Of a stretch of 32,000 nt of DNA, positions 2,936-24,168 are shown in pieces. This stretch comes from Trichodesmium erythraeum IMS101 (GTDB lineage Bacteria > Cyanobacteriota > Cyanobacteriia > Cyanobacteriales > Microcoleaceae): contig NC_008312.1 in assembly GCF_000014265.1 (NCBI RefSeq), positions 5,100,001 through 5,132,000 on the forward strand, written 5' to 3'. Below the pieces are notes generated by a model, which saw only the letters and a list, made by a program, of their open reading frames with translations, searched no databases and was not told the DNA's origin. The translations under genes were made by a program, and so were the position numbers. How positions within the stretch are numbered: position 1 is the first letter of the stretch; each line of letters opens with the position of its first letter.

Positions 2936-3706
2936 ATGGGTATTATATATATTGGCGATCGCGAAACAGGTAAAACTTCTCTTGCTCTTGAACTAGCTAA
3001 CCCTAGTAGTAATAATTTTGTCAAAGTTATTTCCCCCCCCTACAACGAACTAAAGGCTTTACTGTGGGACGATGTAGAGGGGAGAACCCGTGCTACGGAT
3101 GGCAGGGAAGCTACCTATGACCGGACCCTAGAAATAGAAGTTTTCCTTTCCACTAGGCGCAAAACAATATATACCGACTGGGTCGATACTCCTGGAGAAA
3201 TATGGCGAGGAAGTTGGCAAAAAAATAACCCGGACAAATGGGCCAGTTTTGTAGAAACTGCTCATAGTAGCCAAGGAGTTATTCTAGTTGTCCCTCCCTA
3301 TCGGGAAATTATCCGTCAAGATGGGGGAACCAACCCTGATGAATTTATTACTCAACAGCAGTGGGTACGACGGTTTGATAGCTGGGTAGATTTTTTCCGT
3401 TATGAGTGTCCAAATGTCAAACATATTGCTTTATGTCTGAATAAAGTGGACTTACTCCAAGGTATTGACCTGAAACAGGAAGCAGAAAAATTGGCCTTTC
3501 ATCCCCACAGCTCCCGTATGAACTGGAATGAACGCAATGACTATATCTTCAAGCGCTTTTTCCGTCCTATTCGCTCCCATATTGCTCAACTTAATAAATA
3601 CACTTCTGGTTTAAGTGTGAGGTGTTTTATTACTAGCATTTATAACCGTGAGCTTCTTGAGCTACCCTGGATTTATCTAGGAATTTATCTTAAAAGTGAC
3701 ATTTAA
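2936..3706 (+). CDS. P-loop GTPase-like protein, paralog 1 (canonical G1/G3/G4 motifs)
   Basis: 256 aa. G1/Walker A GDRETGKT (aa 7-14), G3 DTPGE (aa 84-88), canonical G4 NKVD (aa 169-172). The next paralog starts 16 nt downstream. Confidence 0.8.
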   Translation: MGIIYIGDRETGKTSLALELANPSSNNFVKVISPPYNELKALLWDDVEGRTRATDGREATYDRTLEIEVFLSTRRKTIYTDWVDTPGEIWRGSWQKNNPDKWASFVETAHSSQGVILVVPPYREIIRQDGGTNPDEFITQQQWVRRFDSWVDFFRYECPNVKHIALCLNKVDLLQGIDLKQEAEKLAFHPHSSRMNWNERNDYIFKRFFRPIRSHIAQLNKYTSGLSVRCFITSIYNRELLELPWIYLGIYLKSDI

Positions 3707-3722
3707 TTTTAAGTAAAAATTT

Positions 3723-4544
3723 ATGGGAAATATTTGTATCATCGGACCCAAGAACTCAGGAAAAACTACCTATCTCGCTGGACTGAGCTATTATTCTGAT
3801 TATGGAGGTTCTTGTAGTAAATATATAGTTTCACCTCTAAACGATGAGTCTCGCGAGCTAAAGCAGCAAGCGGAAGATACTATTTTGACGGGATTATCCT
3901 TTGATGCGACTGGTACCTATGTTCAGAGCGTAAATGACCTTAACTACTACTCTTTTAAAATTGAAGTAAAAAGGGGACTTTTTAAACCTAAAAATATCAT
4001 TATACTAAATGTTCGGGACTATCCTGGTGAAATATTTGAGAATATCCTCTATGCCAGTCAAACAGATAGTATTCACGAAGAGTTTATCAACGAATGTTTA
4101 ATGCCTGATGTTGATGGTTGTCTGTTGCTGTTTACTGAATGGGAAAATAGCAAAGACGATTTTTATAGTAAACTTATGAGTCGCTTTGTGGAAATAATGG
4201 ATGAACACGGTCGTCTTTACAACTATCGTCTAGCTGTGGTGATGAGTAAATGTGAGCGGGGAGAAATTTGGCCAGGACGTATTGACCCTGAAACCGACCT
4301 ATTCCGTGTTTATTTGAAAAAAACTTTTAAAACCCTCAAAAAAGACATTCCTAAACGGAACTTAAGATTTTTTGCCCTATCAACCTTCGGTGTTTTAGGA
4401 CGTTATGACCCACGGCCAAACCGTGTTGATGCTGTGGGTAGTGGGGGACGAGCTTCGACTTTACGGAAATCGGAGGGGAAATCTTGGAAACCCTATAATC
4501 TCATAGAACCCCTTTGTTGGTTAAATAAGGAGGGGCCAAAATAG
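3723..4544 (+). CDS. P-loop GTPase-like protein, paralog 2 (G4 replaced by SKCE)
   Basis: 273 aa. G1 GPKNSGKT (aa 8-15), G3 DYPGE (aa 99-103), SKCE at the G4 position (aa 175-178), LSTFG G5-like. C-terminal tail WKPYNLIEPLCWL is shared with paralog 3. Confidence 0.8.
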   Translation: MGNICIIGPKNSGKTTYLAGLSYYSDYGGSCSKYIVSPLNDESRELKQQAEDTILTGLSFDATGTYVQSVNDLNYYSFKIEVKRGLFKPKNIIILNVRDYPGEIFENILYASQTDSIHEEFINECLMPDVDGCLLLFTEWENSKDDFYSKLMSRFVEIMDEHGRLYNYRLAVVMSKCERGEIWPGRIDPETDLFRVYLKKTFKTLKKDIPKRNLRFFALSTFGVLGRYDPRPNRVDAVGSGGRASTLRKSEGKSWKPYNLIEPLCWLNKEGPK

Positions 4545-4601
4545 TTTGGATCTTAACTCCTAGGGTTGTCTTACAGTCTATAACAATACTTAAAGAAAGA
4601 A

Positions 4602-5507
4602 ATGGTATTATTTGGCAAACAAAAAAAACTAAACTCGGATTCTTTATCAAAAGCTTTCGGGGATGATTCGCTTTTACGTATTATTGGCGGTCGCAACTCT
4701 GGCAAAACTGCTTATCTGGCCTCTTTGGCCTACTGGCCTAATGCTAATCCAGAAAGTCCAGTCAAAAGCATTACGCCTATTGGTGAGGAAGCAGAAGAAC
4801 TTATAGACAAAGCACGAGATATCTTGGAACAGGGATTAGAACTTGAGCCAACTGACCTAAAGGCTGATATTAATGAAGTGAAAGATTATAGTTTTAGTAT
4901 CAATTTAAAAGACCGCTTTTCTTGGTTGGAGGGTTCAAAGAAGTCAGTTCAACTCAATATCAGTTGCAAGGACTATTCAGGAGAACTTTTCTCCGACCTC
5001 ATTTATAAAAAAGGAGACCCAAAGTTAGAAGGTTATCTGGAAGATTGCTGCTTGGCCAGAGGATTACTAATGCTGGTTGATGGCACAAGTCATCGTAAGG
5101 ATAAGGAGTTTGCTATGGGAATGGAGAAGTTGTTGATGGAAATAGATCGCTCAGAAATGGAGATGCAGCATCGGCGCATCGCGTTGGTATTGAGTAAATG
5201 TGAACAGTTAGAACTGTGGGTTAATCGACATCGACCAAGAAAAGTGGCAGCAAGATTTCCCAAATTGTCTGCTCAACTAGAAGCTTGGTCTTATTCTGGT
5301 GGGGGTACGGTAGAATATTTTACTACTTCGGCCTTTGGAATTTTAGGACGACAGTACCCAGAACCCAACTCAATGCGGTTGAGAAGATCGCGAGATGGAA
5401 CTGGTTCGGTGATTAAAAAGCCGAAACTTTGGCGCCCTTTTGGTTTGGTGTCACCCATTTATTGGCTTTGTACTGGAAAACGCCACTCGGAACTTGATCG
5501 AGACTAG
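4602..5507 (+). CDS. P-loop GTPase-like protein, paralog 3 (G4 replaced by SKCE)
   Basis: 301 aa. G1 GGRNSGKT (aa 29-36), G3 DYSGE (aa 124-128), SKCE (aa 198-201), TSAFG, tail WRPFGLVSPIYWL. Collinear with paralog 2 throughout. Confidence 0.8.
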   Translation: MVLFGKQKKLNSDSLSKAFGDDSLLRIIGGRNSGKTAYLASLAYWPNANPESPVKSITPIGEEAEELIDKARDILEQGLELEPTDLKADINEVKDYSFSINLKDRFSWLEGSKKSVQLNISCKDYSGELFSDLIYKKGDPKLEGYLEDCCLARGLLMLVDGTSHRKDKEFAMGMEKLLMEIDRSEMEMQHRRIALVLSKCEQLELWVNRHRPRKVAARFPKLSAQLEAWSYSGGGTVEYFTTSAFGILGRQYPEPNSMRLRRSRDGTGSVIKKPKLWRPFGLVSPIYWLCTGKRHSELDRD

Positions 5508-5556: not shown

Positions 5557-8500
5557 ATGAGTATGGAGAATAAAATATATATTCACGAATTTAGTACTGG
5601 CATTGAGGTAAAAGGTACGGCAACAGCATGGGAATCAGGGGGTTTTACCGGAGAGTATATGAACCGGACTCTTGACAAAATTCCGCAGGCAGTATTAGAT
5701 TCAATCGCTAACAGAGAGTTTGCTTTAGCGGAAGGGGTGGTGAGAGCAGAGCCGGCGATCGTGGGGCGGGTAGTAAGACGTGGTAAGGAAAGCTGGTCGG
5801 TAGTAGCAGTCGTAACAAGGGGTCGAGACGATTTCGGACGGGGAGTATCCCTATACCGTTATTTTCTGTGTCAGGGAGATACAGGCATTGAAACTATTTT
5901 GCGCTGGATGAATAAACCGCTTTCGTGGGTGTTTAATCCGTTTGATAAGAGGGCGATCGGGGAACCTCATCAAGCAGATCATAGTTATATGGAGGTTAAC
6001 TTAATTAAATTTAAGGAGATGTTAGACCAGTCACCACCAATTATTTTTCTTGCTGCAGAGAGTTGTACACCGTTGCTATTAAATGAAATAACGCGAAAAC
6101 TACGGAGACCCAATGGCGATCGCTCATGGGCTTATAAAGTGGCTATGTTGGAACGACCAGAGTATTTTCAGGTCATTTATCCCGCTGATGCTAAAGCAGA
6201 GATGGTCATCAGGGAAGTTTTAGACCGCCGTCAAAGTTCCTCAGTGCTGATATCGGGAGAATCTGGAATTAAAACAGCAATTAAAGCGGTGATGAATGGT
6301 CGGGTGAAGCGGGGACATATTGAGAGTTTAGAAAATGCTCTGGGAAACCAAGGGCTTGATAAGAATTATTGGAAATCTGTTTTAGATAAAGAGGGCGCTT
6401 CTCAAGCTGTTACAGAAAATATTTATGGCGATCGCTATGTGCGACTGTTGACGTTAAAAGCAATGTTAGTTCCACAATTTTTGCCTGAATTTCTAGCTTG
6501 GCTTGCTCATTCACAGGAAGGGGAAATACATTATGGTACTTCGTTAAAGTTACAGCAATCAATGTTACAAGAAGCCCCGAAATTTACTGAACATTTTCCC
6601 CGACTTTCTGAATATCTCAAATGGGGAATTTGCTATACAATTGATGACTTGGTTGATGAGCCGAAAATTATTAAACAATCTCAATTCTTATTAACTAAGC
6701 CAGGGTTTTGGGGTCAGCTTTACAAAGAATCTCTTTCTAAGGAGTTGGAGAATGTTCTCGATCTTATGGGTGAAAAGAGACATAATTTGGAGTCTCTGAA
6801 TTCTCTATATCCCCAATGGAGTAGTTTATTGGGTAAAATTAATAAGTTTTGGTATCCGCAAGAACGACCCGATAATAAATATAAGAGTTTGGCAGAGTTG
6901 TTTGAGAAATTAGAAACCGCAAAATTGGCTGCTATTTTCTATCAAATAGCAGAGGGTAGCGTTCCGAAAAATTTGTTTGACAGTATTTTACCCTCAGATA
7001 AAAAATCAGAATCAACAAGACTTTTTAACAAGAAGATTGATCGCAAGAAAAGTGTAGGCGATCATATTAGTTCTGTTTTCAATGACGTTCAAACAACTTT
7101 TCTTTTAAGTCGGCGGACAGCAATTCAGAAATTGATGAACAATTCCGTAAAGTGGGAATACCTCACAACTTTGGATAATGCTTTGGACAACTCTACAGAA
7201 AACCAACTAAACGATAATGAATCATGGGAGTCATTTTTCGACAAGCAAGGAGCGAAAGGAGCATTGGATAAGAATTCTTACTCTAAGCGCATCATAAAAC
7301 TGTTGACATTAAAGGCCATCTTGATTCCACATTTTTTACCTCTTTTTCTGGAATGGCTTAGGAAATCAGAAGAATCGGAAAAACACTATAGTGTCTCTCA
7401 AAATCTACAGGAAGAGATATTAGGGAAAGTCCCAGAATTGACTCAAAATTGTCCAAAACTTTCTGAACAACTCAAATGGGGTATTTGTATCGTTATTCAT
7501 AGCTTGGTTAATTACCCACACATTCTTAAAGAGTCCAAGTTGTTGTTAACTAAACCAGGGTTGTGGTCGGAGGTTTACCAAGAATCTCTTTCTGGGGAGT
7601 TAGAGAATGACATAAATCTGATAAGTGCTTATATTTCTGGGAGAAGAGATTTGCCGTTTCAGGCAGTTCAATACCCTGAATGGGAGGAGCTGTTGAGGGA
7701 TATTATGAAGTTTTCGCCACGGGGACAACAAGCAGATTCTCGATATTGGACATTGGGGAATTTGTTTGAAGCAGTGGAAACACCAAAACTGGCTCAAGTT
7801 TTCTATGGAATAGGGGGGAATGAGGCTCCGACATCAATAATGCCTTCAAAAAAGGCTCAGAAATCAAAGGGTATTGTAAAAATTTGCTGGGATTTTTTGT
7901 TTGAAAAGATAGACATGGGAGATAGAATGCGTAGAATTTTTATTTTGTTGGTTTTCTTCGCCTCAGTATCCTTCGCTGGATATAGTGGATGGTTTCTGCG
8001 AGGTATTCTACAGCCTAACGGTTCAGCGTCAAAAAGGAATGAAAATTATCAAGCAATTAATGCTTTAATAGATGATTTGACTAAAGAAACAAAAAATATA
8101 TTTGATCAGAGCAAGAAGAATAATCAAGATGATAAGTTACCTAAAAAAATTATTGCTAGCATTAAGCAGAAGAAATTAAATAAGCCAGAAGAAATTTTAC
8201 CGTTTTGTATTGGAGACATACTAGAAATTAAAGATTTTCAGTACAGTGATATAAAGGCAGATAATCAAAAATCACTAAAATTTAGTGAAGCTATTTCTAA
8301 ATATCAGGATCAAAAAGGAATAAAAAATGCTGCTCCTGGGATAATTAAAAGAGATAAAAATACATATAAACAGTTAAAAATAGATATTGAAAATGAATGC
8401 TTGTCTCCTAGGCTTTCTGAGATAAATCAAGATAAATACGATAAAACTAATGCAGCAATTGAGGCAATAGCAAAAGGATTGGAAATAAAGATAAAAGATT

Positions 8501-8871
8501 TAGTTTCAAATAAAAGTTTACCTACTGATATCCCAGCAATATTTTATAAAGATTACTATCAAGAGCAAAACCCAAACCCACAAAACATCAACTCACAAGG
8601 AATTGTACAGCACTGTGTAAAAAAAGAACTGGGACTGGGGTCTGACTTCCAGTACAGCTATATTAGGCAATATAATAAAGAATGGGAGAAATTTAGTGAA
8701 ACAATCAAGAAATATCAGAGAGAAAAAGGTACAATGACAGCTCCTGATGGAGTAATTAATCAGGAGAAAGATACACAAAAAACATTAAAAGAAAATATTC
8801 AGAAAAAATGCTTAAAATCTACAACAGTTGAATCCCTTAACCTGAAAAACCCAAAACCACCTAGTACATAA
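5557..8871 (+). CDS. Giant (1104 aa) single-pass membrane protein: N-terminal alpha/beta region, two ~215-aa helical repeats, one TM helix, lysine-rich C-terminal region with two ~70-aa repeats
   Basis: Long uninterrupted ORF 49 nt after GTPase paralog 3. Internal repeats at aa ~256-470 and ~537-757. TM segment RRIFILLVFFASVSFAGYSGWFL (aa ~792-815, nt ~7930-8001). C-terminal repeats at aa ~882-951 and ~1018-1088. The stop overlaps the next start (TAATG). Confidence 0.85.
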   Translation: MSMENKIYIHEFSTGIEVKGTATAWESGGFTGEYMNRTLDKIPQAVLDSIANREFALAEGVVRAEPAIVGRVVRRGKESWSVVAVVTRGRDDFGRGVSLYRYFLCQGDTGIETILRWMNKPLSWVFNPFDKRAIGEPHQADHSYMEVNLIKFKEMLDQSPPIIFLAAESCTPLLLNEITRKLRRPNGDRSWAYKVAMLERPEYFQVIYPADAKAEMVIREVLDRRQSSSVLISGESGIKTAIKAVMNGRVKRGHIESLENALGNQGLDKNYWKSVLDKEGASQAVTENIYGDRYVRLLTLKAMLVPQFLPEFLAWLAHSQEGEIHYGTSLKLQQSMLQEAPKFTEHFPRLSEYLKWGICYTIDDLVDEPKIIKQSQFLLTKPGFWGQLYKESLSKELENVLDLMGEKRHNLESLNSLYPQWSSLLGKINKFWYPQERPDNKYKSLAELFEKLETAKLAAIFYQIAEGSVPKNLFDSILPSDKKSESTRLFNKKIDRKKSVGDHISSVFNDVQTTFLLSRRTAIQKLMNNSVKWEYLTTLDNALDNSTENQLNDNESWESFFDKQGAKGALDKNSYSKRIIKLLTLKAILIPHFLPLFLEWLRKSEESEKHYSVSQNLQEEILGKVPELTQNCPKLSEQLKWGICIVIHSLVNYPHILKESKLLLTKPGLWSEVYQESLSGELENDINLISAYISGRRDLPFQAVQYPEWEELLRDIMKFSPRGQQADSRYWTLGNLFEAVETPKLAQVFYGIGGNEAPTSIMPSKKAQKSKGIVKICWDFLFEKIDMGDRMRRIFILLVFFASVSFAGYSGWFLRGILQPNGSASKRNENYQAINALIDDLTKETKNIFDQSKKNNQDDKLPKKIIASIKQKKLNKPEEILPFCIGDILEIKDFQYSDIKADNQKSLKFSEAISKYQDQKGIKNAAPGIIKRDKNTYKQLKIDIENECLSPRLSEINQDKYDKTNAAIEAIAKGLEIKIKDLVSNKSLPTDIPAIFYKDYYQEQNPNPQNINSQGIVQHCVKKELGLGSDFQYSYIRQYNKEWEKFSETIKKYQREKGTMTAPDGVINQEKDTQKTLKENIQKKCLKSTTVESLNLKNPKPPST
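6322..7827 (+). repeat. Intragenic tandem duplication (two ~215-aa modules, nt ~6322-6966 and ~7165-7827) inside the giant protein
   Basis: Shared blocks in the same order: LLTLKA(M/I)L(V/I)P.FLP.FL.WL, HY, P.LSE.LKWGIC, LLTKPG.W, Y.ESLS.ELEN, YP.W..LL, LFE..ET.KLA..FY.I. Confidence 0.8.
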
Positions 8872-9995
8872 TGAAACTTTACTTCTATATTCTTTCCGGC
8901 ATAACTTCCGCCCTTCTTGGATGGAACATAGGACAACTGTTCCTCAGTGACTTTGGCTTGTTTAACCTTTTGGCTGAAGTTGGCATTTTTCCGGAAATAA
9001 TCTTGTTTCCCTGCATTGCTATCTCCCTGGCGATGGGCAGTATTGCTAACGAAATCTTCCTTAGTAACCCCACTCGTCCCAAAATCAGCTTGCGGACGCT
9101 ACCCGCTCCCTTGTTCATCGCTTTCATTATAGGAATTATCTTTGGTTTAGTAGCGGGTGGCATTTACCAAATTTTCTTAGCTCCCGAAATAGCTGTTCCC
9201 CCTTTTATTGTTCGCATCTGTGGTTGGTTAATAGTGGGAGCTTCCGTAGGCTCTGCCGAAGGGTTGAGTTGGCGGTGGCGTAGTATTCAAGCTGGCAACC
9301 CTAAATACTTCCGAAAACGACTTTTTCTCAGTATGATCACAGCTAGTATTGCCAGTCTCATAGCTGCTATCGCCTTTGAATTATTGCGCCAAATTCAGGG
9401 ATCTATGCCAGCATCTTTCAAATCTTATGAAGATCCTTTCGGTTTTGCTATTTTGGGATTATGTTTGGGCATTGCTTTTAGTATTACCAACTTTACCCCC
9501 AGTTATCTGCCAGCATTGAGAGCAGGAAGTGGATTCGAGTATTCAGGAGAAGAATATGATGACATCGATCCCCGTCGGACAGTCCTCAGTCGAGACTATC
9601 CCAGGATAAATAGCTCCCTCCTGAAGTTTATCAGTTACCGTTCTCAATACAAATACGATAATGACTACAAAATTGAGGAAGGTTTATCTATGGAACTTCC
9701 CGACCAGGGAATTATTCGCATTGGTTCAGCCAACAAAGCTCAGATTTGCCTTCCCCACCTCCCTCTGCACGCTGCAGATATTAGACTAAAAAGAAAAAAC
9801 GCGATTTTATTTCCCAACCCAAGGTTTTTTGATACCGTTGCCATTAACGGGACGCGACTCAGTTCTAGTCGTAATATTGATCTCAAACATAACTATGTCC
9901 TTACTTTCTACACTAATGCTCAAGATGATAATATTGAAGTTCCCGAATGCTACCGTATGGTCTTCTATAACCGCTTTTTCGATCCGATGGCTTAG
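8871..9995 (+). CDS. Polytopic (~6 TM) glycine-zipper membrane protein with C-terminal divergent FHA-like domain
   Basis: 374 aa. The ATG shares one base with the upstream TAA (TAATG at 8869-8873). TM helices contain GxxxGxxxG (GIIFGLVAGG, GASVGSAEG). C-terminus IIRIGSANKAQICLPHLPLHAADIRL...VAINGTRL fits the FHA pattern loosely. Confidence 0.75.
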   Translation: MKLYFYILSGITSALLGWNIGQLFLSDFGLFNLLAEVGIFPEIILFPCIAISLAMGSIANEIFLSNPTRPKISLRTLPAPLFIAFIIGIIFGLVAGGIYQIFLAPEIAVPPFIVRICGWLIVGASVGSAEGLSWRWRSIQAGNPKYFRKRLFLSMITASIASLIAAIAFELLRQIQGSMPASFKSYEDPFGFAILGLCLGIAFSITNFTPSYLPALRAGSGFEYSGEEYDDIDPRRTVLSRDYPRINSSLLKFISYRSQYKYDNDYKIEEGLSMELPDQGIIRIGSANKAQICLPHLPLHAADIRLKRKNAILFPNPRFFDTVAINGTRLSSSRNIDLKHNYVLTFYTNAQDDNIEVPECYRMVFYNRFFDPMA

Positions 9996-11208
9996 TAGTT
10001 TAGCTATAGCTATACTAGGTTTCAACAGTTCAGCTTTCGGACAGACTGCCGAAATTGTTGGTCGTCCCATGGTCAAGGATGATGAAATTACTCTCCGCAT
10101 TAAAGTTACTGAAGATGGAGAGCGCCCGGCAATGTTTCTTGAAGAACAAGATTTTCAGGCAATTGTCGATAACGACCTGGTAGATATTATATCATGGAAA
10201 AATCCTGAAGAAAGCGTTCCTCCTCCAGCATGGATTATAGTTTTGCTCGACTTTAGCGGGAGTATGAAGGAAAAAGATAGTAGTGGAACTACAAAACTTG
10301 AGGGAGCGATCAAGGCTACCCGAGAATTTCTGGAAACAACGAGTGCGCGTGGTAGCAATACCAGGGTAGCAATTTTTCCTTTTGGGGAAGGTGGAGGAAG
10401 ATGTAATAGTTATAAGGTGAGGAGGGAGAATATCAAATCTAGATTTTTTCCTGCGGACGATTTCAAACACAAAAACTTACTAGATAATCTGGCCAAGAAA
10501 ACTCCTTGCGCATCCACTAATATTTATGACCCTCTCAAAGAAGCTATCCGCTTGCTCAGCGACCAAGAAGATACGGACTTTTATGTTCCTGAAGATTCCA
10601 TAGAACCAGAACCACGACTATCAGTGATTTTGCTGTCTGATGGGTACCATAACAAAAAATACGAAAACCGGGATTTTAGGAGATTAATTGCTTTACTTGA
10701 GCGTCATGATCATATTGTGGTTCACACTTTGGGATACGGTTTAACACAAGAACAGCTTGGAAAAAAGTATAATCTGGGACGACCAGCAACCCGCGCTGAT
10801 GTAAATCAAAAATATGTTCCAGCAGAGGAATTTGTTGACCAGATGCGTTTGCAGGAAATAGCAGAAGTAACAGGAGGAATCTCAGAATTCTCTGGTGATG
10901 CTGATGATATTGCCGAGGCGTTGCAGTTATTTCTCAATTCTCTGTTAGGAGAATACGAGATTATTTATCGGGAACCCAACCCGGTACGCGCCTCTAAACA
11001 TGAGGTTTTTGTGACAGCTACAGTTAATGGACAGGATGTAGATACTACACAGAAATCTTATACTATTAATGCTTTTGGGCGATCGCTACCAGCAAAAACC
11101 AGATTAAAAATGACGGGTTTAGTGTTGTTGCTATTGGGGTTAGGAGGAGTTATACCTTTCTGGAATTGGAGTCAGAGACTCAAGCAAGAAACTGAAGAAG
11201 ATTTTTAA
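9925..11208 (+). CDS. Secreted vWA-domain protein with C-terminal membrane anchor
   Basis: MIDAS DFSGS (IIVLLDFSGSMKE), later ILLSDGYHN. Signal-peptide-like WLSSLAIAILGFNSSAFG/QT. C-terminal TM GLVLLLLGLGGVIPFW. The start is uncertain: in-frame ATGs at 9829, 9895, 9916 and 9925 all overlap the upstream gene, and I chose 9925 as closest to the signal peptide. Confidence 0.7.
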   Translation: MIILKFPNATVWSSITAFSIRWLSSLAIAILGFNSSAFGQTAEIVGRPMVKDDEITLRIKVTEDGERPAMFLEEQDFQAIVDNDLVDIISWKNPEESVPPPAWIIVLLDFSGSMKEKDSSGTTKLEGAIKATREFLETTSARGSNTRVAIFPFGEGGGRCNSYKVRRENIKSRFFPADDFKHKNLLDNLAKKTPCASTNIYDPLKEAIRLLSDQEDTDFYVPEDSIEPEPRLSVILLSDGYHNKKYENRDFRRLIALLERHDHIVVHTLGYGLTQEQLGKKYNLGRPATRADVNQKYVPAEEFVDQMRLQEIAEVTGGISEFSGDADDIAEALQLFLNSLLGEYEIIYREPNPVRASKHEVFVTATVNGQDVDTTQKSYTINAFGRSLPAKTRLKMTGLVLLLLGLGGVIPFWNWSQRLKQETEEDF

Positions 11209-11275
11209 TGACAAAATGAGCAACTTTTTGAATTTGCTATAATTACATAGCTATCTCTCAGGAGAAAAAACTACA

Positions 11276-12709
11276 ATGAACTGGCAAAACTTGACTCAAA
11301 AACTCCCTAAACCAATTATCTTCGGAATATTCGGCGGTGCTGGATGTCTTATAGCTGCGGCAATATTTGGTGAAATGTGGCTGTCTCTGACCAGGCGACC
11401 TCCCCAACCTCAAACTGTCGTTCTCCTCATCGACACTTCTTCTAGCATGTGGGGTGGTAAACTTCCAGAAGTCCAAGCAGCAGCTACCGGATTCGTTGAA
11501 CGACAAAATTTAACTGTTAATAACTTAGCCATTGTAGAATTTTCCAGCAACTCGCAAGTTCTGACCAATTTTGATGCTGATAAAACTGAACTCAAACAAG
11601 CGATCGCTAATCTCACCCCATCTGGAGGTACAAACCTTTCTCAAGGCCTCAAAACAGTCGCTTCTCTTCTGCGAAACAGCAACACTCCCAATATTCTCCT
11701 ATTTACAGATGGTCAACCCAACGACCCTAGGGCCTCAAAATCAATAGCTAGAGAAATCCGAGAGGCAGGAATTAATTTAGTCACAGTGGGAACCGGAGAT
11801 GCAAACAGTAACTATCTCACTTCCTTGACAGAAAATCCAGACCTAGTCTTTTTTGCTAACTCTGGAGAAATAGACCAAGCTTTCCGAGCTGCTGAAAAAG
11901 CCATCTCACAACTATCTGACACAAGTGGTAATTACGGCTTAGTCTTCGGTATTTTCCGCATAGGGGCATGGACCGGTTTTCTGGCTCTCGGAATTGGACT
12001 GGCCTTAATCCTTGGACAAAACTATAACCTCCGCCGTCGGTTGTTGTCGAAGCAAGAAGTTGCTCTTGGAGGTGGGGGTGGTTTTCTCGCTGGAGTAGTA
12101 GGTGGAGCGATCGGTCAATTGGCGCTTCTGTCAAGTACTAATCTCCCGACTTTAGCGATCGTAGCTCGAATGACCGGCTGGACTTTTCTCGGAACCCTTG
12201 TTGGTGGTGGAACGTCTTTATTTGTTCCTAACCTACCTCGTGAAAAAGCCTTGATCGCCGGAGGGTTAGGAGGTGTGTTAGGAGCGACTTGCTTTCTCTT
12301 GCTCAATGCATTGGTAGGTGTGCTTCCAGCTCGTTTGGTAGGAGCAGGAATTTTAGGATTTTGCATTGGGTTGGCTATCGCTTTTAGTGAACAACTAGAC
12401 CGGGAGGTAGTATTGTTGGTTCGCTGGAACAACTCAGAATTTACAACTATTTCCTTGGGAAAGGAACCCATTGAACTTGGTAGCTCCCGGAATGCTCATA
12501 TTTATCTATCAAGAGATGCTGGTTTTCCCGCTAAGTTTGCTAAGATATTTATTGAAGAAGAAAAAATTATTTTAGAATTTGACCCGTCAATTAGAGAGCG
12601 CCCGAAGTTTCAAAATATGAAAGTTTTGAAACAGGAACTTTCATATGGCTCAAGTCGTAAATTCGGAGATGTTTTATTAGAAATTCCACAAAAAAACATA
12701 CTAAAATAA
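11276..12709 (+). CDS. Membrane protein: N-terminal TM, vWA domain, five glycine-zipper TM helices, C-terminal divergent FHA-like domain
   Basis: 477 aa. TM1 IIFGIFGGAGCLIAAAIFG. MIDAS DTSSS (VVLLIDTSSSMWG), GGTNLSQG, LLFTDGQPND. TM block aa ~220-371 has GFLAGVVGGAIG, GGLGGVLG, GILGFCIG. C-terminus ISLGKEPIELGSSRNAHIYLSRD...FAKIFIEEEKIILEFD. Confidence 0.75.
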   Translation: MNWQNLTQKLPKPIIFGIFGGAGCLIAAAIFGEMWLSLTRRPPQPQTVVLLIDTSSSMWGGKLPEVQAAATGFVERQNLTVNNLAIVEFSSNSQVLTNFDADKTELKQAIANLTPSGGTNLSQGLKTVASLLRNSNTPNILLFTDGQPNDPRASKSIAREIREAGINLVTVGTGDANSNYLTSLTENPDLVFFANSGEIDQAFRAAEKAISQLSDTSGNYGLVFGIFRIGAWTGFLALGIGLALILGQNYNLRRRLLSKQEVALGGGGGFLAGVVGGAIGQLALLSSTNLPTLAIVARMTGWTFLGTLVGGGTSLFVPNLPREKALIAGGLGGVLGATCFLLLNALVGVLPARLVGAGILGFCIGLAIAFSEQLDREVVLLVRWNNSEFTTISLGKEPIELGSSRNAHIYLSRDAGFPAKFAKIFIEEEKIILEFDPSIRERPKFQNMKVLKQELSYGSSRKFGDVLLEIPQKNILK

Positions 12710-13304: not shown

Positions 13305-13694
13305 ATGGTAAAATACACCCTAACAATTGCGAACAATAGTCAACCTAACTTAAATCCTGTATCCTACAGTTTAGAATTGGGTTATGAGTCTGAAAATAAT
13401 CCAGAACAGTTGTTTGATAGAGAATTTCGCGAACAACTCCGCTCAACTCTCCAACAAAAAACATCCTGTTCGATCAATGATTACCATTTAGAAACTATTG
13501 TGACAATTTGGATGGAGGATATCTGTAGGGGTTATCGCTCAACCAGTCTCAGTTTCAATCTCCTCCCAATAGAATTTGATAATATTCATCGACTTCAAGA
13601 TCCAGGAGATTTCTCAATTCCTGATCTATTTCCTCCCGACCTAAGCACAATTTGCCCCCAAAACGGAGTTTTTCCTCCATTAATCTTTAATTAA
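13305..13694 (+). CDS. Hypothetical protein (129 aa), orphan ORF in the gap splitting the cluster
   Basis: ORF only, with no recognisable motif. Same orientation as the cluster. Composition is protein-like, but there is no supporting signal. Confidence 0.35.
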   Translation: MVKYTLTIANNSQPNLNPVSYSLELGYESENNPEQLFDREFREQLRSTLQQKTSCSINDYHLETIVTIWMEDICRGYRSTSLSFNLLPIEFDNIHRLQDPGDFSIPDLFPPDLSTICPQNGVFPPLIFN

Positions 13695-13871: not shown

Positions 13872-15197
13872 ATGCTTGACGTAACCATTACCCCCCATCG
13901 AGAATTTCTAGCGGCTGATACCCCTGGACAAAAGCTGTTTGTCATGTTAAAATTACGTCCAAACGCAATTGTTTCAGCAAGTCGTCCTTCAACAACCTTC
14001 ACCTTTGTTATTGATACCAGTGGTTCAATGTATGATGATAGTGAAGTGGGGAGGCCGAAAATTGATATTGTTGTTGAAGCTCTCGAACGCTTAGTTACTG
14101 ATATACAAGCAGATCCTCGCGATCGAATTGCCCTAGTACAATTTGATGATTCAGCATCAGTTTTGTTGCCCTTGACTGCTGCCACAGATACTGTTACTCT
14201 CCAAAATGCCATCTCCAAATTACGAAGTTTTAGTGGTGGAACAAGGATGGCTTTGGGAATAGAAAAATCCCTGAATTTATTGAAAGACTCTGTTCTCAGT
14301 AGTCGTCGCACTCTCATTTTTACTGATGGACAGACAATAGATGAAATTGACTGTCGAGAACTAGCGGTACAATTTGCCCAAGCTGGAATTCCTATTACTG
14401 CTCTCGGTGTTGGTGACTACAATGAAGACTTGTTAGTCTATTTGAGTGATCACACTGGGGGTCGCGTTTTTAATGTTGTGGAACAAGCCAGTAATACTGG
14501 AACCACAGATATAGCAATTTCTGAGCTGCCACAGACAATTTTTCAAGAAGTACAACAGGCTCAAGCTGAGGTCATTAATAACCTCAAGCTTAGTGTTCGT
14601 ACTGTCAAAGGGGTTAATTTACAAAGACTTAGCCGTGTTTATCCAGACCGCGCTGATATTCCTGTTACTCAAGAACCTTATCTCATCGGCAGCGCTCTCG
14701 CTAATGACGATACTATTTTTATTCTTGATTTTGATATTGATAGCAGAGCTCAATCACGGGTTCGTATTGCTCAATTAGGTTTAACTTACGACATTCCCGG
14801 TCAGCAGCGACGAGGAGAACTACCCCCTCAAAATCTTGTTATTCAGTTGGTTGCCGGAAAAGGTGGAATTGCCCAAACAAATCCGGAAGTCATGGGATAT
14901 GTACAACAGTGTAACATTGGTCAATTAGTCGATCATGCAGCAGCAGTAGCTGATAGCAACCCTGATGAAGCAGCAAAACTTTTGGAAACAGCAAAACGAG
15001 TAACTGTCAAAATTGGAAATGAAGCCATGTTAAAAACTCTCAATCTTGGTATTGAAGAAGTACGCAAAACCCGTAAACTGTCTTCAGGAACCCGCAAGAC
15101 TGTAAAAATGGGTGCTAAGGGTAAAACTGTAAAAATGAGCGATAGTCCTAATGATCAACTTTCAGAAGAACAAATCCGTAATATGACAGGAACCTAG
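13872..15197 (+). CDS. Soluble vWA-domain protein (TerY-like)
   Basis: 441 aa. MIDAS DTSGS (TFTFVIDTSGSMYDD), GGTRMALG, LIFTDGQTID. No TM segment. Basic C-terminal tail with repeated KTVKM. Confidence 0.8.
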   Translation: MLDVTITPHREFLAADTPGQKLFVMLKLRPNAIVSASRPSTTFTFVIDTSGSMYDDSEVGRPKIDIVVEALERLVTDIQADPRDRIALVQFDDSASVLLPLTAATDTVTLQNAISKLRSFSGGTRMALGIEKSLNLLKDSVLSSRRTLIFTDGQTIDEIDCRELAVQFAQAGIPITALGVGDYNEDLLVYLSDHTGGRVFNVVEQASNTGTTDIAISELPQTIFQEVQQAQAEVINNLKLSVRTVKGVNLQRLSRVYPDRADIPVTQEPYLIGSALANDDTIFILDFDIDSRAQSRVRIAQLGLTYDIPGQQRRGELPPQNLVIQLVAGKGGIAQTNPEVMGYVQQCNIGQLVDHAAAVADSNPDEAAKLLETAKRVTVKIGNEAMLKTLNLGIEEVRKTRKLSSGTRKTVKMGAKGKTVKMSDSPNDQLSEEQIRNMTGT

Positions 15198-15285: not shown

Positions 15286-15320
15286 AACCTAAAACCTAAA
15301 ACCTAACACCTAACACCTAA
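15286..15320. repeat. Heptanucleotide tandem array (AACCTAA x3, CACCTAA x2), STRR-like
   Basis: Five perfect or near-perfect 7-nt units, ending 9 nt upstream of the ATG at 15330. Confidence 0.7.
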
Positions 15321-15329
15321 AAAATAGCT

Positions 15330-16049
15330 ATGTATATTACCTGTGAAACTTGTGGCTACGATAATAATCCCACGGATGCCGAATACTGCGAGGCATGTGG
15401 TGCAGAGTTGAAAAGTACTAGTCCCGCTATCATTGAACAAAATCAACCAATTACAACTCCTAAAGTTATTCCTATGACACCTTCAGGACCAGAGTTAGCT
15501 GTTACTACTTGTCAAGCTTGTGGCTATGATAATAATCCTATTGATGCTGAATATTGTGGCGCATGTGGTGCAGAGCTAAAAAGCATCGCTGCCACTACCA
15601 TTCAAACAAATCCAACAATTACGACTCCTAAATTCATTCCCATCACACCTTCAGGGCCAGGATTAGAATCTACTTCTGCCATTCCCACACCTTCTTTATC
15701 GACAACAATATCCCCTGCACGTTTAGTTGCTAAACAACCCAATGTCCCTCAATCTGAATTTCCTCTAAACAATGTTGCAGTGGTAGGGGTGTTCGATCCT
15801 GATAGTGGTCCAGTGGATATCGATCTTGAAAGTTTTCTGGGTGGGGAAACAGTGTCACGTCAGCACGCCGAAATTTACCCAGAATATGGGCATTGGATGG
15901 TAAAAGACCTAGGATCACTTAACGGTATTTTTATCAAACCTAGTGGTCAAACTCGCTTTGGGGCAAGAATTACCACTCCTATGAATTTGAATCCTGGGGA
16001 CGAAATTGCCTTTGGAAAAGTTCAATTTGTATTTCGACTAGGAAGTTAG
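15330..16049 (+). CDS. Double zinc-ribbon FHA-domain protein
   Basis: 239 aa. Two CxxC-x11-CxxC ribbons (CETCGYDNNPTDAEYCEACG, CQACGYDNNPIDAEYCGACG) lie within a tandem ~56-aa duplication. C-terminal FHA signature GGETVSRQHAEI...KDLGSLNGIFI...GDEIAFG. Confidence 0.85.
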   Translation: MYITCETCGYDNNPTDAEYCEACGAELKSTSPAIIEQNQPITTPKVIPMTPSGPELAVTTCQACGYDNNPIDAEYCGACGAELKSIAATTIQTNPTITTPKFIPITPSGPGLESTSAIPTPSLSTTISPARLVAKQPNVPQSEFPLNNVAVVGVFDPDSGPVDIDLESFLGGETVSRQHAEIYPEYGHWMVKDLGSLNGIFIKPSGQTRFGARITTPMNLNPGDEIAFGKVQFVFRLGS

Positions 16050-16117: not shown

Positions 16118-18019
16118 GTGATTTCAGAAAATACTTCGTTACAAATTGAACAGTTATCAATAACTGTACTCGAAAATATAGGTCAACGTAATAATCAAAT
16201 TCGCTATTTTAAAGTACGCTTTGACAGTGAAGATAGCGAAATGAATCAAATAGGAATGTTGCGTGTAGGTTCGGCAACAGGTTTACTTCAGCAGGAGTTA
16301 CAACTGCGGGAAATTTTAGGTGAGTATGCCTTAGTCGCTCCCCTCATCGCCAAAACTACTGTTTCCGACATTGCACAAATTATAACAGTATCGTCACCTG
16401 CAAAAGATACTGTTGTCCAAACCCCTATAGACGAAACTTTGACATCAAGTTGTGATAATGGAACAAGTCAGAAAACTTTACTTCAGACCAATGAAGAACA
16501 AATTGAGACGCCATCAGAGGTCGAAACCGAAATAGAAGCGGAAACTATGGAAACTGTTGTAGAAAAAACAATAGATTCTGAAGTTCTAGCCGATGAAAAA
16601 TCCTTTGATGAAGATACCCTTGATGCGGTAGACTTAGACTCTTTAAAATCTTCTGATGAGCCTAATAATGGTGACTATCTTGAAGATGAGTATTATCCAG
16701 AAATACCTCTTCCCGGTAATGAAGGGGAACAGTTGTTGCTGTTAACAGAGTTTCCTGATAGCCAACTCACCCTCAGTAACTGGTTAAAAAATTCTCCTAG
16801 TCCACTAGAAGCCTTAAAATTGAGCACACAAATTTGTCAGTTTTTCTGGTATCTCCATCAAAAAAAATGGTGCCTAATTGACCTTGACCCAGATTTGATA
16901 GCAGTCGGTAAACCTATTTGCTGTTTTGACCTCACTTGTGCTTATCCTGAAGCTAGGCCGCTCACCAGTGGATTAATAGGAACTTATTGCGCTCCTGAAT
17001 TAGCCTTTGTTCCAACACCTGAGGAGAAAAGTAGCACTTACACTATTGGTGCTTTACTTTATCATATGTTGCATGGAGACCCACCTACCAAGGAACTGAA
17101 GTATAAAGAATGTTCAGTACCCCTCTTTGCTCAACTACTAGCGTTATCTTTGTCTCCCCTTATTGATGAACGTTTTTCTCTGGTACAGTTACGGAGTTTG
17201 CTCATTGAGGCTTATAATACTCTAGATACTGTTCGTGTGAGTTGGGAAATAGCTAGTAAATCAACGGTGGGACTATCTCCACAACGACTGCACAATGAAG
17301 ACAGTTACGGAATCACTCAAAGTGATTCTGATGGTTCTGAAATCGTTGTTTTAGCAGCTTTAGCAGACGGAATGGGAGGAATGGCCCAAGGAGAAGTGGC
17401 TAGTCGTTTAGCAGTGAAGACTATTCTTAATGGATTAAGTGGAGAAGTTGAAAATACCCGAAATAATAGAGAGCGTTGGCTGATTTATCTTATAGAACAG
17501 GCTAATGCTGAAGTTTCAAAGGTAGCTCCAAATGGGGGAACAACATTAAGTTTAGTGTTATTAGAGTCGACAAAAATGTCCCTCGCACATGTAGGTGATA
17601 GTCGTATTTATTTGATTCGCGATCGAGAAATTCGTCAGTTGAGCGAAGATCATTCTTTAGTTGCTCTCCTTGTCGCTAGCGGCCAAATTTCTGCAGCAGA
17701 AAGTCGGCAGCATCCAGAGCGCAATGTTCTAACTAAGTCTTTGGGGGCGAAAAAGCGCCTTTCCCAGGGTTATGTACAAACTGTTACTGATATAGAGTTG
17801 CAAGATGGTGATGTTATTTTGTTATGCTCTGATGGTGTTTGGGATCTGGTAAGTGACCAAGAACTGACAGAACTTTTCATGCCAATGAGCTCAACAACAG
17901 TGTTGCAGACTGCTGTCAACCAAGGGATAAAGCTGGTTTTAAAACGTGGCGCACCAGATAATGCCACTCTATTAGCGTTACGCTGTCAGATAACTCCTAC
18001 TCAAGTTTATTTCCCTTAA
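16118..18019 (+). CDS. Degenerate protein-kinase-like domain (probable pseudokinase) with acidic insert, fused to a PP2C (PPM) Ser/Thr phosphatase
   Basis: 633 aa with a GTG start. Kinase-like C-lobe: LIDLDPDL in place of HRDLKPEN, CCFDLTC in place of DFG, YCAPEL retained; no GxGxxG or VAIK Lys seen. Acidic insert aa ~95-200. PP2C motifs NEDSYG, LADGMGG, GGTTLS, HVGDSRIYL, LCSDGVWD, PDNATLLAL. Confidence 0.85.
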   Translation: MISENTSLQIEQLSITVLENIGQRNNQIRYFKVRFDSEDSEMNQIGMLRVGSATGLLQQELQLREILGEYALVAPLIAKTTVSDIAQIITVSSPAKDTVVQTPIDETLTSSCDNGTSQKTLLQTNEEQIETPSEVETEIEAETMETVVEKTIDSEVLADEKSFDEDTLDAVDLDSLKSSDEPNNGDYLEDEYYPEIPLPGNEGEQLLLLTEFPDSQLTLSNWLKNSPSPLEALKLSTQICQFFWYLHQKKWCLIDLDPDLIAVGKPICCFDLTCAYPEARPLTSGLIGTYCAPELAFVPTPEEKSSTYTIGALLYHMLHGDPPTKELKYKECSVPLFAQLLALSLSPLIDERFSLVQLRSLLIEAYNTLDTVRVSWEIASKSTVGLSPQRLHNEDSYGITQSDSDGSEIVVLAALADGMGGMAQGEVASRLAVKTILNGLSGEVENTRNNRERWLIYLIEQANAEVSKVAPNGGTTLSLVLLESTKMSLAHVGDSRIYLIRDREIRQLSEDHSLVALLVASGQISAAESRQHPERNVLTKSLGAKKRLSQGYVQTVTDIELQDGDVILLCSDGVWDLVSDQELTELFMPMSSTTVLQTAVNQGIKLVLKRGAPDNATLLALRCQITPTQVYFP

Positions 18020-18283: not shown

Positions 18284-18318
18284 TACTTTTGACTTTTGAC
18301 TTTTTACTTTTTACTTCC
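18284..18318. repeat. Heptanucleotide tandem array (TACTTTT GACTTTT GACTTTT TACTTTT TACTTCC), STRR-like
   Basis: Five 7-nt units ending 13 nt upstream of the ATG at 18332. A partial duplicate (TTTTACTTTTAACTTCCTAAGATGAT) sits ~60 nt upstream at ~18250-18275. Confidence 0.7.
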
Positions 18319-20449: not shown

Positions 20450-20708
20450 CTTTTAGAGTAACAAGTCTGCAAAGAGGGGTAACTACTGAAGTCAGATAAT
20501 TATACACAGTCAAATAAATATTAATAATCCTTGAAAATACTGATTATCTCCTATTTTCAAATTATGATAAATTATCAAATAATTGTTATCATAAAATCAA
20601 GTCTCAAGGGCTATAATTTAGGGGTCGGTACTGATAACTAGAGCTTAGAGTAAATAATTGATAACTTAGTAACAAGTATGAAAAGAGGGCTAACGACTGA
20701 AGCTAGAT
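20447..20708. repeat. Pair of ~50-70 bp direct repeats flanking a ~140-bp AT-rich spacer just 3' of the kinase gene
   Basis: 20447-20497 reads TAGCTTTTAGAGTAACAAGTCTGCAAAGAGGGGTAACTACTGAAGTCAGAT. 20638-20708 reads TAGAGCTTAGAGTAA[ATAATTGATAACTTAG]TAACAAGTATGAAAAGAGGGCTAACGACTGAAGCTAGAT. Confidence 0.55.
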
Positions 20709-21071
20709 CAGGATTTTTTTGTAATTCTGTAGTCTGACAAGCCTGTCTAATGGTTCCAGATCATATCATAGGAGTTTTCGTCTTACCTAATTACCTGAAC
20801 CGTATCGAATTATAAAAGCGATTTTCCAACTTTTACTTGATTGTTTTTGTTTTAGTAAATGCCCCTGCTGATTTAGTAATACCATATCTCTATCAAGAAA
20901 CAAATTGGGAATTTTAATGTAGTCCCACCAACGGGGTTTCAACCGATGAATTGTTTTAGCAAAGTTCCTAGGAAATTGAGAAACAATTCTAGATTTTCCA
21001 GGAGATACTAGCAAACAAGCAAACAATAAGTCACCAGTCCTAATTTTTTTACCTTCGTTAATTATTAATAA

Positions 21072-21512
21072 TTAAAAATCGACTCTTTTATATTTATGAT
21101 ATCCTTCAGGACAGTCAACTGAGCTACCATTAACAACTGGAAAGTCTTTCGACAAAGCTACACTGTGATAAATGCTGGCTCGACAAATTAAACAATAAAA
21201 TTTCTCTTGGCTTGACATAACTGCAAGTCCTACAAAAGTAGATAAAGTGGGTTCTTTTGGTTCTGCATATATAGGAGCAATTCTATCATTTTTACCATAT
21301 TTAATTAAACCAAAATGATAGTATTTACCCTCGCCTTTGGGGTCATTAGATTTGTTGTACATTCTGCCGTTTTTTAAGTAATGGCTTTCTTGAGCAATAC
21401 ACTGTCTTGTCAATCCATCAATAACTTCCTGGCGACTGATTTCATTGTCTTTTGGCTCGAATATATAATCGAGAACATAAGGAATTAGCAAAGGTAGAAA
21501 GCATGTAAACAA
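21072..21512 (-). CDS. Hypothetical protein, possibly cyanobacterial type IV pilin-like (G/H-type) protein; start uncertain or frameshifted
   Basis: 146 aa opening with TTG. C-terminal pattern AEPKEPTLSTFVGLAV...YCLICRA...CPEGY resembles the A.PK..L.SYVG.V....I.CEA pattern of cyanobacterial pilin-like proteins as I remember it. An ATG (21526-21528) sits out of frame across a T8 run. Confidence 0.4.
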   Translation of the reverse strand: MFTCFLPLLIPYVLDYIFEPKDNEISRQEVIDGLTRQCIAQESHYLKNGRMYNKSNDPKGEGKYYHFGLIKYGKNDRIAPIYAEPKEPTLSTFVGLAVMSSQEKFYCLICRASIYHSVALSKDFPVVNGSSVDCPEGYHKYKRVDF

Positions 21513-21668
21513 AAAAAATAAGAATCATCTTCCTACTTTAGTTCTCAATAAAAAGTTAATGACAAACCTCTCAAATATAACTTTCCCTAACAAATTCCAA
21601 ATAAATTCCCAGAAATTAAACCTATTACTCATATTCTTTTATCTCCTTGCATTTTATTATTTTTATAA

Positions 21669-21759
21669 TCAGGACTTACGTAGCACAGCTATATATGGTG
21701 TATTTGGATGAATTTTTCAGATATTTGCAGTACAATTAGTACCTTTGCGTAAATCATGA
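21669..21759. mobile_element. MITE-like element (~91 bp), TCAGGACTTACGTA ... TGCGTAAATCATGA
   Basis: Collinear similarity to the 24054-24143 copy (shared TCAGGACTTACG, CTATATAT.GTGT and internal blocks). Right terminus is degenerate. Confidence 0.55.
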
Positions 21760-23870: not shown

Positions 23871-24053
23871 GTATAAAAGTTTTTGTCACTCATTGAGTTT
23901 ACTCCTAAAACTAATTTTTACTATATTAAGAAATTTATTTTGATTAAGGTTGACATATTTTAACGGCTCCAAAGCTTAAGTTCTTAAACCAGCTATTGTC
24001 AGTCCCTATTGTTAATTTCTTCATAGTTATTCACAATAATCACCTAAACAAAA

Positions 24054-24143: not shown

Positions 24144-24168
24144 AAATTTGAGTTTCCTACTCCCTATT

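Follow-up and report, generated by a model that had tools for sequence, protein, structure and literature searches.

Three putative DO-GTPases at the predicted core of a conserved cyanobacterial membrane-associated operon

DO-GTPases ("double-GTPases") are a superfamily of TRAFAC GTPases that was defined computationally, with a Glu in the Walker B motif as the defining feature (Kaur, Burroughs, Iyer & Aravind 2020, eLife 9:e52696). Their genes lie upstream of that of a large partner, GAP1; the proteins were proposed to act as nucleotide-dependent dimers, and the systems were described as 'nearly completely absent' from cyanobacteria (eLife 9:e52696). Of the conflict and signalling systems predicted in bacteria, the DO-GTPase systems belong to the most poorly understood and are experimentally uncharacterised. 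Here we analysed a 32,000-nucleotide stretch of Trichodesmium erythraeum IMS101 (contig NC_008312.1, positions 5,100,001 to 5,132,000; the window), in which three tandem genes, G1, G2 and G3, encode GTPase-like proteins. Our results suggested that the three proteins belong to the DO-GTPase superfamily and are the core of a 12-gene membrane-associated signalling operon. With moderate confidence, we regard them as the nucleotide-switch core of a membrane-associated signalling system that is conserved in cyanobacteria.

The reported GAP1-N2 systems include GAP1 proteins with C-terminal transmembrane (TM) segments, peptidoglycan-binding and NTF2-like extracellular domains, and membrane vWA proteins; in one GAP1-N2 theme, restricted to actinobacteria, a zinc-ribbon kinase occurs with an active PP2C and a vWA protein that stands alone (both eLife 9:e52696). 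The TerY-P triad of vWA, PP2C and zinc-ribbon (ZnR) kinase was proposed as a phosphorylation-dependent switch (Anantharaman, Iyer & Aravind 2012), and TerY-P-like modules were reported as antiphage systems (Gao et al. 2020), both as summarised in PMC11090510. A later paper from the school of Kaur et al. treated YcjX as DO-GTPase-related and, together with its references, presents it as a stress GTPase of the PspF regulon.

The GTPase trio and its family

The three genes lie in the window as follows.

2936-3706, plus strand: G1, predicted 256-aa soluble Ras-like GTPase of the DO-GTPase superfamily
3723-4544, plus strand: G2, predicted 273-aa soluble GTPase of the DO-GTPase type
4602-5507, plus strand: G3, predicted 301-aa soluble GTPase of the DO-GTPase type, paralogue of G2

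Three plus-strand open reading frames (ORFs) with GTPase motifs had been reported at these positions in an earlier, sequence-only reading of the window, and translation of the exact sub-coordinates bore this out. The P-loops are GDRETGKT in G1 (2954-2977), GPKNSGKT in G2 (3744-3767) and GGRNSGKT in G3 (4686-4709), and the Walker B motifs are DTPGE (3185-3199), DYPGE (4017-4031) and DYSGE (4971-4985), respectively. At the base-specificity motif (G4), NKVD is present only in the first gene (3440-3451), and SKCE in the second (4245-4256) and the third (5193-5204), just as had been noted. The distinctive W...P...WL tail said to be shared by G2 and G3 was also found at both C-termini (WKPYNLIEPLCWL, 4485-4523, and WRPFGLVSPIYWL, 5430-5468). 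Further motifs are ITSI and an invariant switch-I Thr54 in G1, STFG in G2 and TSAFG in G3. The gaps measure 16 nucleotides between G1 and G2, 57 between G2 and G3, and 49 between G3 and the next gene, which encodes a giant protein. No TM segment was detected in any of the three GTPases by TM scan. Each of them has several hundred homologues, with E values from 1e-80 to 1e-190, which indicates that they are real genes rather than chance ORFs; the homologue search also returned a T. erythraeum IMS101 protein 100% identical to G2.

The kinship within the trio is uneven. G2 and G3 share 31% identity over their full length in pairwise BLASTP (E 3e-35), and nothing significant was obtained by the same method for G1 against G2 or G3 (E 0.056 and 1.4). 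When a profile of 18 G1 orthologs was aligned with the G3/G2 ortholog profile, hhalign gave a probability of 97.2% (E 3.9e-11) over 197 columns, with the P-loop, DxxGE, NKxD/xKCE and the G5 TS all in register. These comparisons indicate that the trio consists of one diverged member (G1) and a closer pair (G2 and G3) within one superfamily. The earlier description of the genes as three paralogues thus stands for G2 and G3 by pairwise comparison, but G1 is related to them at the profile level only.

The family already has a name in Pfam, a point that the sequence-only reading had overlooked. G3 matched DO-GTPase2 with 36.4 bits and so passed the gathering score of 27, with DO-GTPase1 as a second match; G2 matched DO-GTPase1 with 23.1 bits and fell short of the gathering score, again 27 (the two families are PF19975 and PF19993). 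G1 of T. erythraeum had no DO-GTPase match and only faint matches to Roc and Ras. Among the orthologs, 20/20 of G2 and 12/18 of G1 matched DO-GTPase1 at E<=0.01. Since the Walker B Glu is the defining feature of DO-GTPases, the DxxGE motif that had been noted earlier is the mark of this family. Taken together, the profile matches suggest that G1, G2 and G3 belong to the DO-GTPase superfamily of TRAFAC GTPases. The claim that none of them is a housekeeping GTPase held up: no Pfam or NCBIfam match of the trio to the models of Era, Obg, EngA/Der, FtsY/Ffh, MglA or YchF was obtained at E<=0.1. NCBIfam returned nothing for the three GTPases or the giant protein, and no relatives came up when PDB was searched by sequence with profiles of G3, G1 and the giant protein.

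Predicted structures agree with a GTPase fold. The AF2 models reached a pLDDT (predicted local distance difference test) of 81.7 and a pTM (predicted TM-score) of 0.83 for G3, and 81.4 and 0.84 for G1. A Foldseek check had been suggested for such models, and it returned GTPase folds only. The best PDB match of G3 was YcjX (E 1.7e-5, query TM-score (TMq) 0.45); next came G-alpha, an Asgard Rag-like GTPase, Sar1/Arl, MglA and SR-beta. G1 was matched best by Rab, Ras, RagA and Arf (E ~2e-5, target TM-score (TMt) up to 0.68). Housekeeping GTPases appeared merely as weak generic matches to the GTPase fold. A TRAFAC-class fold is thus supported by the models and Foldseek matches of G1 and G3, and GxxxxGKT, the switch-I Thr and DxxG are invariant in the ortholog alignments.

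YcjX was also considered as a sequence relative of G3 and was rejected. hhalign gave a probability of 4.7% despite the aligned P-loop and DYPGE, and the Pfam scan found no match to PF04317 (YcjX/DUF463) among the GTPases. YcjX is therefore a structural neighbour only. Its motifs in E. coli are GLSRSGKT, VDYPGEW and TKAD, so the Walker B Glu is shared and the G4 Asp is kept.

Conserved operon and its distribution

The synteny sample held one genome per GTDB species; from 116 relatives of G3, 80 loci were kept, and 80/80 were cyanobacterial. The locus is present in Oscillatoriales (Okeania, Phormidium, Arthrospira, Planktothrix, Microcoleus), in Nostocales (Nostoc, Calothrix, Tolypothrix, Dolichospermum, Anabaenopsis) and in colonial or unicellular forms (Microcystis, Crocosphaera, Gloeothece, Pleurocapsales). 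When the ORFs of these loci were searched with the proteins of the window, the same gene order was recovered nearly everywhere, across orders. Counting only loci whose contig permits the test, G2 lies directly upstream of G3 in 76/76 loci and G1 upstream in 55/56. The giant protein is encoded directly downstream of G3 in 62/62, and the genes of a multi-pass TM protein and a vWA protein (vWAa) then follow in 47/56. The GTPases themselves are 50-60% identical across cyanobacterial orders.

In the window, nine further genes on the same strand lie 3' of the trio, and we read the trio as the core of a putative 12-gene membrane-associated signalling operon. The nine genes are listed here.

5557-8871, plus strand: giant protein, 1104 aa, with a conserved N-domain, a helical middle, one TM segment and an extracytoplasmic C-terminal region
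8871-9995, plus strand: multi-pass membrane protein, 374 aa, ~5-6 TM segments, cytoplasmic C-terminal domain; conserved 3' of the giant gene
9829-11208, plus strand: vWAa, Pfam VWA_2 and VWA, N- and C-terminal TM segments, DFSGS at the metal ion-dependent adhesion site (MIDAS)
11276-12709, plus strand: vWAb, Pfam VWA (1.7e-22), MIDAS DTSSS; N-terminal TM segment, vWA domain, three further TM segments and the shared C-terminal domain
13305-13694, plus strand: small 129-aa protein, no Pfam domain; conserved upstream of vWAc in many loci
13872-15197, plus strand: vWAc, soluble TerY-like protein, Pfam VWA (5.5e-20), MIDAS DTSGS, PADLOC TerY (E 6e-5)
15330-16049, plus strand: 239-aa protein with double zinc ribbon and canonical FHA domain (ZnR-FHA), Pfam FHA (2.1e-11) and DZR (1.2e-9), motifs SRQHA and SLNG
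16118-18019, plus strand: pseudokinase-PP2C protein, Pfam PP2C_2 (3.8e-18) and weak Pkinase (7e-4)
18332-20449, plus strand: Ser/Thr kinase, Pkinase (1.4e-41), N-terminal Zn_Ribbon_1, C-terminal TPR; VAIK, HRDIK and DFG present

The giant protein had no Pfam, NCBIfam or PDB match. In the ortholog alignment, its ~215 N-terminal residues are strongly conserved with invariant columns, and the rest is variable. The TM scan placed a single TM helix at ~aa 794-812, followed by the C-terminal extracytoplasmic region. The C-terminal repeats are weakly similar to PG_binding_1, and one ortholog matched this family (E 0.0056). The Trichodesmium protein also contains a tandem duplication of a ~230-aa helical middle module (6307-7056 versus 7057-7950, 45% identity, E 2e-67); orthologs elsewhere have ~700-770 aa, and in some genomes, for instance at loci L004, L038, L055 and L075, several giant-like ORFs stand in a row.

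The stop codon of the giant gene overlaps the start of the 8871-9995 gene (TAATG). The true start of vWAa is probably downstream of 9829. The C-terminal domains of the 8871-9995 protein (~120 aa) and of vWAb (~100 aa) are related to each other (hhalign 89%, E 2e-6). An FHA identity proposed for them by eye was rejected, as their hhalign comparison with the true FHA domain of the operon gave E 0.24 and 0.026. In the ZnR-FHA gene, a 168-bp tandem duplication (15338-15660, 79% match) yields the two zinc-ribbon and linker modules. The N-terminal region of the PP2C protein (16118-17250) is kinase-like and lacks VAIK, HRD and DFG, as in a pseudokinase, and the PP2C domain is apparently active. Heptamer tandem repeats stand just 5' of two start codons, AACCTAA x5.3 before the ZnR-FHA gene (15286-15322) and ACTTTTG x4.6 before the kinase gene (18285-18316); in this they are similar to the short heptamers repeated in tandem in filamentous cyanobacteria.

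The operon is bordered by long non-coding stretches. Upstream of G1 lies a 1.36-kb AT-rich stretch (1574-2935, GC 0.26-0.31) without ORFs, and downstream of the kinase gene 3.7 kb (20450-24168) contain ORFs of at most 146 aa. Neither stretch gave an Rfam or tRNA match; the promoter and terminator scans added nothing, with promoter-like sites at the frequency expected from shuffled sequence. The flanking genes are ordinary and all on the minus strand: a cobA/hemD fusion (uroporphyrinogen methyltransferase plus synthase, 35-1573) on one side, and genes at 24169-26037, 26976-27401 and 28555-30444 on the other, whose products are uvrC, a SUI1-family protein and another Ser/Thr kinase.

Between vWAa and vWAb, 3-5 additional genes are found in other cyanobacteria, among them the close relative Okeania (9047-11580 in locus L003, 15389-18656 in L017, 15212-19722 in L046 and 23407-26735 in L082), and T. 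erythraeum is without them (11208-11276). The extra genes encode ARC6/Ftn2-like IMS-domain proteins and a serine hydrolase of the beta-lactamase family, which are periplasmic wall-related modules. A second, diverged G1-G2-G3-giant copy with ~51% identity to G3 was seen in loci L064-L074, L066 and L073 (metagenome-assembled genomes of Okeania, Dapis and Trichodesmium); these copies have wider intergenic gaps (0.3-1.1 kb) and are usually not followed by vWA or TM genes.

The operon also occurs on plasmids. Trichormus variabilis ATCC 29413 (L082) carries a complete ~19-kb operon on its 35.8-kb plasmid B, where the GTPases and the giant protein are annotated as 'hypothetical protein'. The operon fills more than half of this plasmid, which also carries parAB, dnaB, an integrase and xisF. 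Eight plasmids with the operon were found in PLSDB, all of them cyanobacterial (several Nostocales and Gloeothece), and a scan of IMG/VR found no viral contig with it. Proteins of the wider family also occur as fusions with Ser/Thr kinase, ZnR-kinase, GUN4-vWA, CHAT and SPFH domains. The GTPase is thus independently tied to the partners found in the operon.

Nucleotide specificity, mechanism and role

The G4 motif was counted in 120 ortholog clusters (90% identity) per protein. Orthologs of G1 have NKAD (116), NMAD (2), NKVD (1) or SKAD (1), with Asp in 120/120. Those of G2 have SKCE (110), SKSE (9) or GKCE (1), and those of G3 have TKCE (68), SKCE (36), NKCE (8), TKSE (3), GKCE (2), HKCE (1), SKSE (1) or NKCD (1). 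The sequence-only reading had asked whether SKCE was a sporadic substitution, and the alignment of homologues answered that it is conserved: the acidic residue is Glu in 120/120 clusters of G2 and 119/120 of G3. DTPGE was found in 110/120 G1 clusters, and the Walker B Glu is retained in essentially all of the 360 clusters (3 x 120). As P-loop and Walker B are intact throughout the orthologs and every alignment has an invariant candidate for the switch-I Thr, all three proteins look like competent nucleoside triphosphatases.

An exhaustive profile search over 1.84 billion representatives (E<=1e-3) found 381 relatives, so the wider family is small. In the best 150 of the 381, G4 reads [S74 T37 N16 A10 G7]-K-[C99 F16 A12]-[E102 D42], and hardly any variation is seen in the tail W-x-P-[FY]-G-x-x-x-P-[IL]-Y-W-L (W in 140/142 and 142/142). 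Members of the Asp type mostly do not fall into the G2 and G3 orthogroups and are often fusion proteins. In a subclade of nine proteins (P0390, P0409, P0435, P0449, P0452, P0473, P0476, P0490 and P0498), the P-loop is degenerate (GPRPSGK[L/I/F]), the Walker B Asp is lost and G4 reads S[KHCI]FD, with the WxPFG...PxYWL tail kept. Because of the degenerate P-loop and the lost Asp, these nine are probably pseudo-GTPases.

The G4 motif of H-Ras is NKCD, and the Glu-type G4 of G2 and G3 would most simply be a variant of NKCD that became fixed in the lineage and continues to read guanine. The wider family alternates between Asp and Glu, the first position is variable and one G3 ortholog has NKCD, so the pattern resembles neutral drift about a guanine-type motif more than a specificity switch. 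The alternative, rather doubtful in our judgement, is a heteromeric switch with differing nucleotides, in which G1 would be GTP-specific and the Glu-type G4 of G2 and G3 would be relaxed or shifted (ATP, xanthosine triphosphate or promiscuous), so that two nucleotide pools would be integrated. The fixation of Glu in G2 (120/120) and G3 (119/120) and of Asp in G1 (120/120) through a long co-evolution in one operon argues for this, as the division of Glu and Asp among the trio is stable within the cyanobacterial clade and not drift there. YchF/OLA1 provides a precedent, with NxxE in place of NKxD and a preference for ATP. However, Asp occurs in 42 and Glu in 102 of 144 members of the wider family, with N, S, T, A or G at the first position of G4; G2 and G3 keep the G4 Lys; and the NKCD of one G3 ortholog is identical to the Ras motif. 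Ser or Thr in place of Asn is also common among GTP-specific relatives such as YcjX (TKAD), and GTP-specific TRAFAC GTPases commonly lack the Asn, as dynamin (TKLD) and septin (AKAD) do. An extended form, improbable in our estimate, would join a guanine-specific Ras-like subunit and two Glu-G4 subunits of altered preference on the giant scaffold. This cyanobacteria-specific hetero-trimeric GTPase would couple periplasmic peptidoglycan/vWA sensors and the kinase/PP2C/FHA switch to an immune or cell-fate decision. If it were true, such a hetero-trimer with altered bases would be a prokaryotic signalosome joining two nucleotide pools, which has no described counterpart.

A heteromeric switch that includes the giant protein had been suggested before. 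It is in line with the co-occurrence of the genes (76/76, 55/56 and 62/62) and with the published dimer model for DO-GTPases, and from synteny we infer that a heteromeric switch is the best reading of the trio. By analogy with that model, G2 and G3 may form a nucleotide-dependent pseudo-homodimer, with G1 as a third subunit. The complex would dock on the cytoplasmic N-domain of the giant protein, which would have a GAP1-like scaffold role, and the binding and hydrolysis of GTP would gate the assembly or a conformational change of an envelope-spanning complex. Perturbation of the envelope or the peptidoglycan could be sensed by the periplasmic vWA and PG-binding-like domains, and elsewhere also by the ARC6-IMS and beta-lactamase-like proteins. 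Thr phosphorylation by the kinase, reversed by PP2C and read by the FHA domain, might set the state or the threshold.

Several results weigh against the trio as the switch core of such a signalling system. The switch or dimer model for DO-GTPases is itself only a prediction. Pfam holds GAP1 models, and the giant protein, searched with 14 orthologs at E<=1, showed neither a shared family nor a GAP1 match; it can therefore be equated with GAP1 by position only. No GASH, FNIII, tubulin or HSP70 component was found among the operon proteins by Pfam, of which the lack of GASH and FNIII counts here. No system defined in PADLOC-DB v2 matched the core proteins, and the matches obtained were generic ones to kinase, PP2C and TerY. 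The GTPases are well conserved across orders, the locus sits between housekeeping genes (cobA/hemD and uvrC), and neither obvious toxic effectors at the locus nor viral copies in IMG/VR were found; these features seem to fit a cell-biological role as well as defence.

The biological role is most likely a conflict (anti-invader) or an envelope-damage response. Conflict is suggested by plasmid carriage, the second copies and the CHAT and GUN4 fusions, and envelope signalling by the strong conservation, the lack of obvious toxins and of a PADLOC match, and the periplasmic modules related to the wall. A role outside conflict altogether is possible, though we hold it the less probable course: a conserved cyanobacterial module for envelope or peptidoglycan homeostasis, division or morphogenesis, in which the GTPases would be membrane-stress regulators of the YcjX type or regulators of the MglA/Rag type downstream of periplasmic peptidoglycan sensors. 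The synteny across the phylum looks vertical at 50-60% identity, and the operon holds periplasmic domains of the ARC6/Ftn2-like IMS, serine-hydrolase/beta-lactamase-like and PG-binding-like kinds. The closest solved fold is the PspF-regulon stress GTPase YcjX, no recognisable toxic effector or PADLOC system was found, and the neighbours in the window are housekeeping genes. On the other side, the operon is carried by plasmids in several Nostocales and Gloeothece, some genomes have a second diverged copy, and a family of 381 representatives is small and thus not universal. Members of the family are also fused to CHAT caspase-like proteases and to GUN4, which are typical partners in cyanobacterial conflict systems (Kaur et al., eLife 9:e52696). 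We consider it very unlikely that the giant protein organises the three GTPases into a heteromeric filament at the membrane, of a septin-like or cytoskeleton-like kind. A set of three paralogues that are conserved together and have distinct G4 motifs does recall septin hetero-oligomers, and related systems were suggested to form 'complexes akin to cytoskeletal structures' (Kaur et al., eLife 9:e52696). However, septin-specific elements and coiled-coil extensions are absent, septins are not among the top Foldseek matches, and no evidence for polymerisation was obtained.

With the trio as the nucleotide-switch core, the locus is a compact and strongly conserved three-GTPase version of a DO-GTPase system across filamentous and colonial cyanobacteria, the phylum in which the founding paper saw near-absence. 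The bloom formers Trichodesmium, Microcystis, Dolichospermum, Planktothrix and Arthrospira carry it. The small size and solubility of the GTPases, and the clean difference between the paralogues at the base-specificity motif, make the trio a tractable entry point to paired bacterial GTPase signalling and to whether Glu for Asp alters nucleotide choice. Through its link to periplasmic peptidoglycan-related domains and a TerY-P-like phospho-switch, the operon could show how damage to the envelope or an infection is sensed in multicellular cyanobacteria.

Comparison with known systems

With H-Ras and the small GTPases, the trio shares the Ras/Rab-like fold of G1, and [STN]KCE is one or two substitutions away from NKCD. 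It differs from them by large insertions, a Walker B Glu instead of Gln61, a length of 256-301 aa and the lack of a lipidation tail. YchF/OLA1 shares with G2 and G3 the Glu for Asp at the base-specificity position, but it belongs to an Obg-like family and is without the NKxD Lys that G2 and G3 keep.

YcjX (DUF463, PDB 6NZ4-6NZ6) is the best structural match of G3 and has a helical insertion after the P-loop helix as well. In common with the trio operon are the DYPGE Walker B and the combination of a soluble GTPase with a membrane partner (YcjF). In contrast, there is no significant sequence match, the TM-score is ~0.45, and YcjX is a single gene whose 465-aa product has TKAD.

The TerY-P triad resembles the downstream part of the operon, where a TerY-like vWA protein with MIDAS, a PP2C and a zinc-ribbon Ser/Thr kinase are encoded together. 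However, the zinc ribbon of the kinase is N-terminal rather than C-terminal and TPR repeats are added, PP2C is fused to a pseudokinase, a ZnR-FHA gene is inserted, and the module is subordinate to a larger GTPase/membrane operon. A link to MADS, raised by a 16.7-bit match of G2 to mad8, was rejected, as MADS is a methylation-associated 8-gene system that is based on a methyltransferase, has other components and is absent here.

The closest resemblance is to the DO-GTPase/GAP1-N2 systems. No description of a cyanobacterial triple-GTPase operon was found in the literature, and, although the family has already been named, this conserved operon appears to be undescribed. Shared features are TRAFAC GTPases with the Walker B Glu, paralogous GTPase genes side by side (G2 and G3 adjacent in 76/76), the gene of a large protein directly downstream, often with a C-terminal TM segment and wall-binding domains, and membrane vWA proteins together with a kinase/PP2C/vWA module. 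Unlike the described systems, which have one or two GTPases, the present operon has three, including a Ras-like NKxD member. Its GTPases are without N-terminal zinc ribbons or TM segments and bear the Glu-type G4 and the WxPFG...PxYWL tail, and, as far as seen in the 80 loci, the operon occurs in cyanobacteria only.

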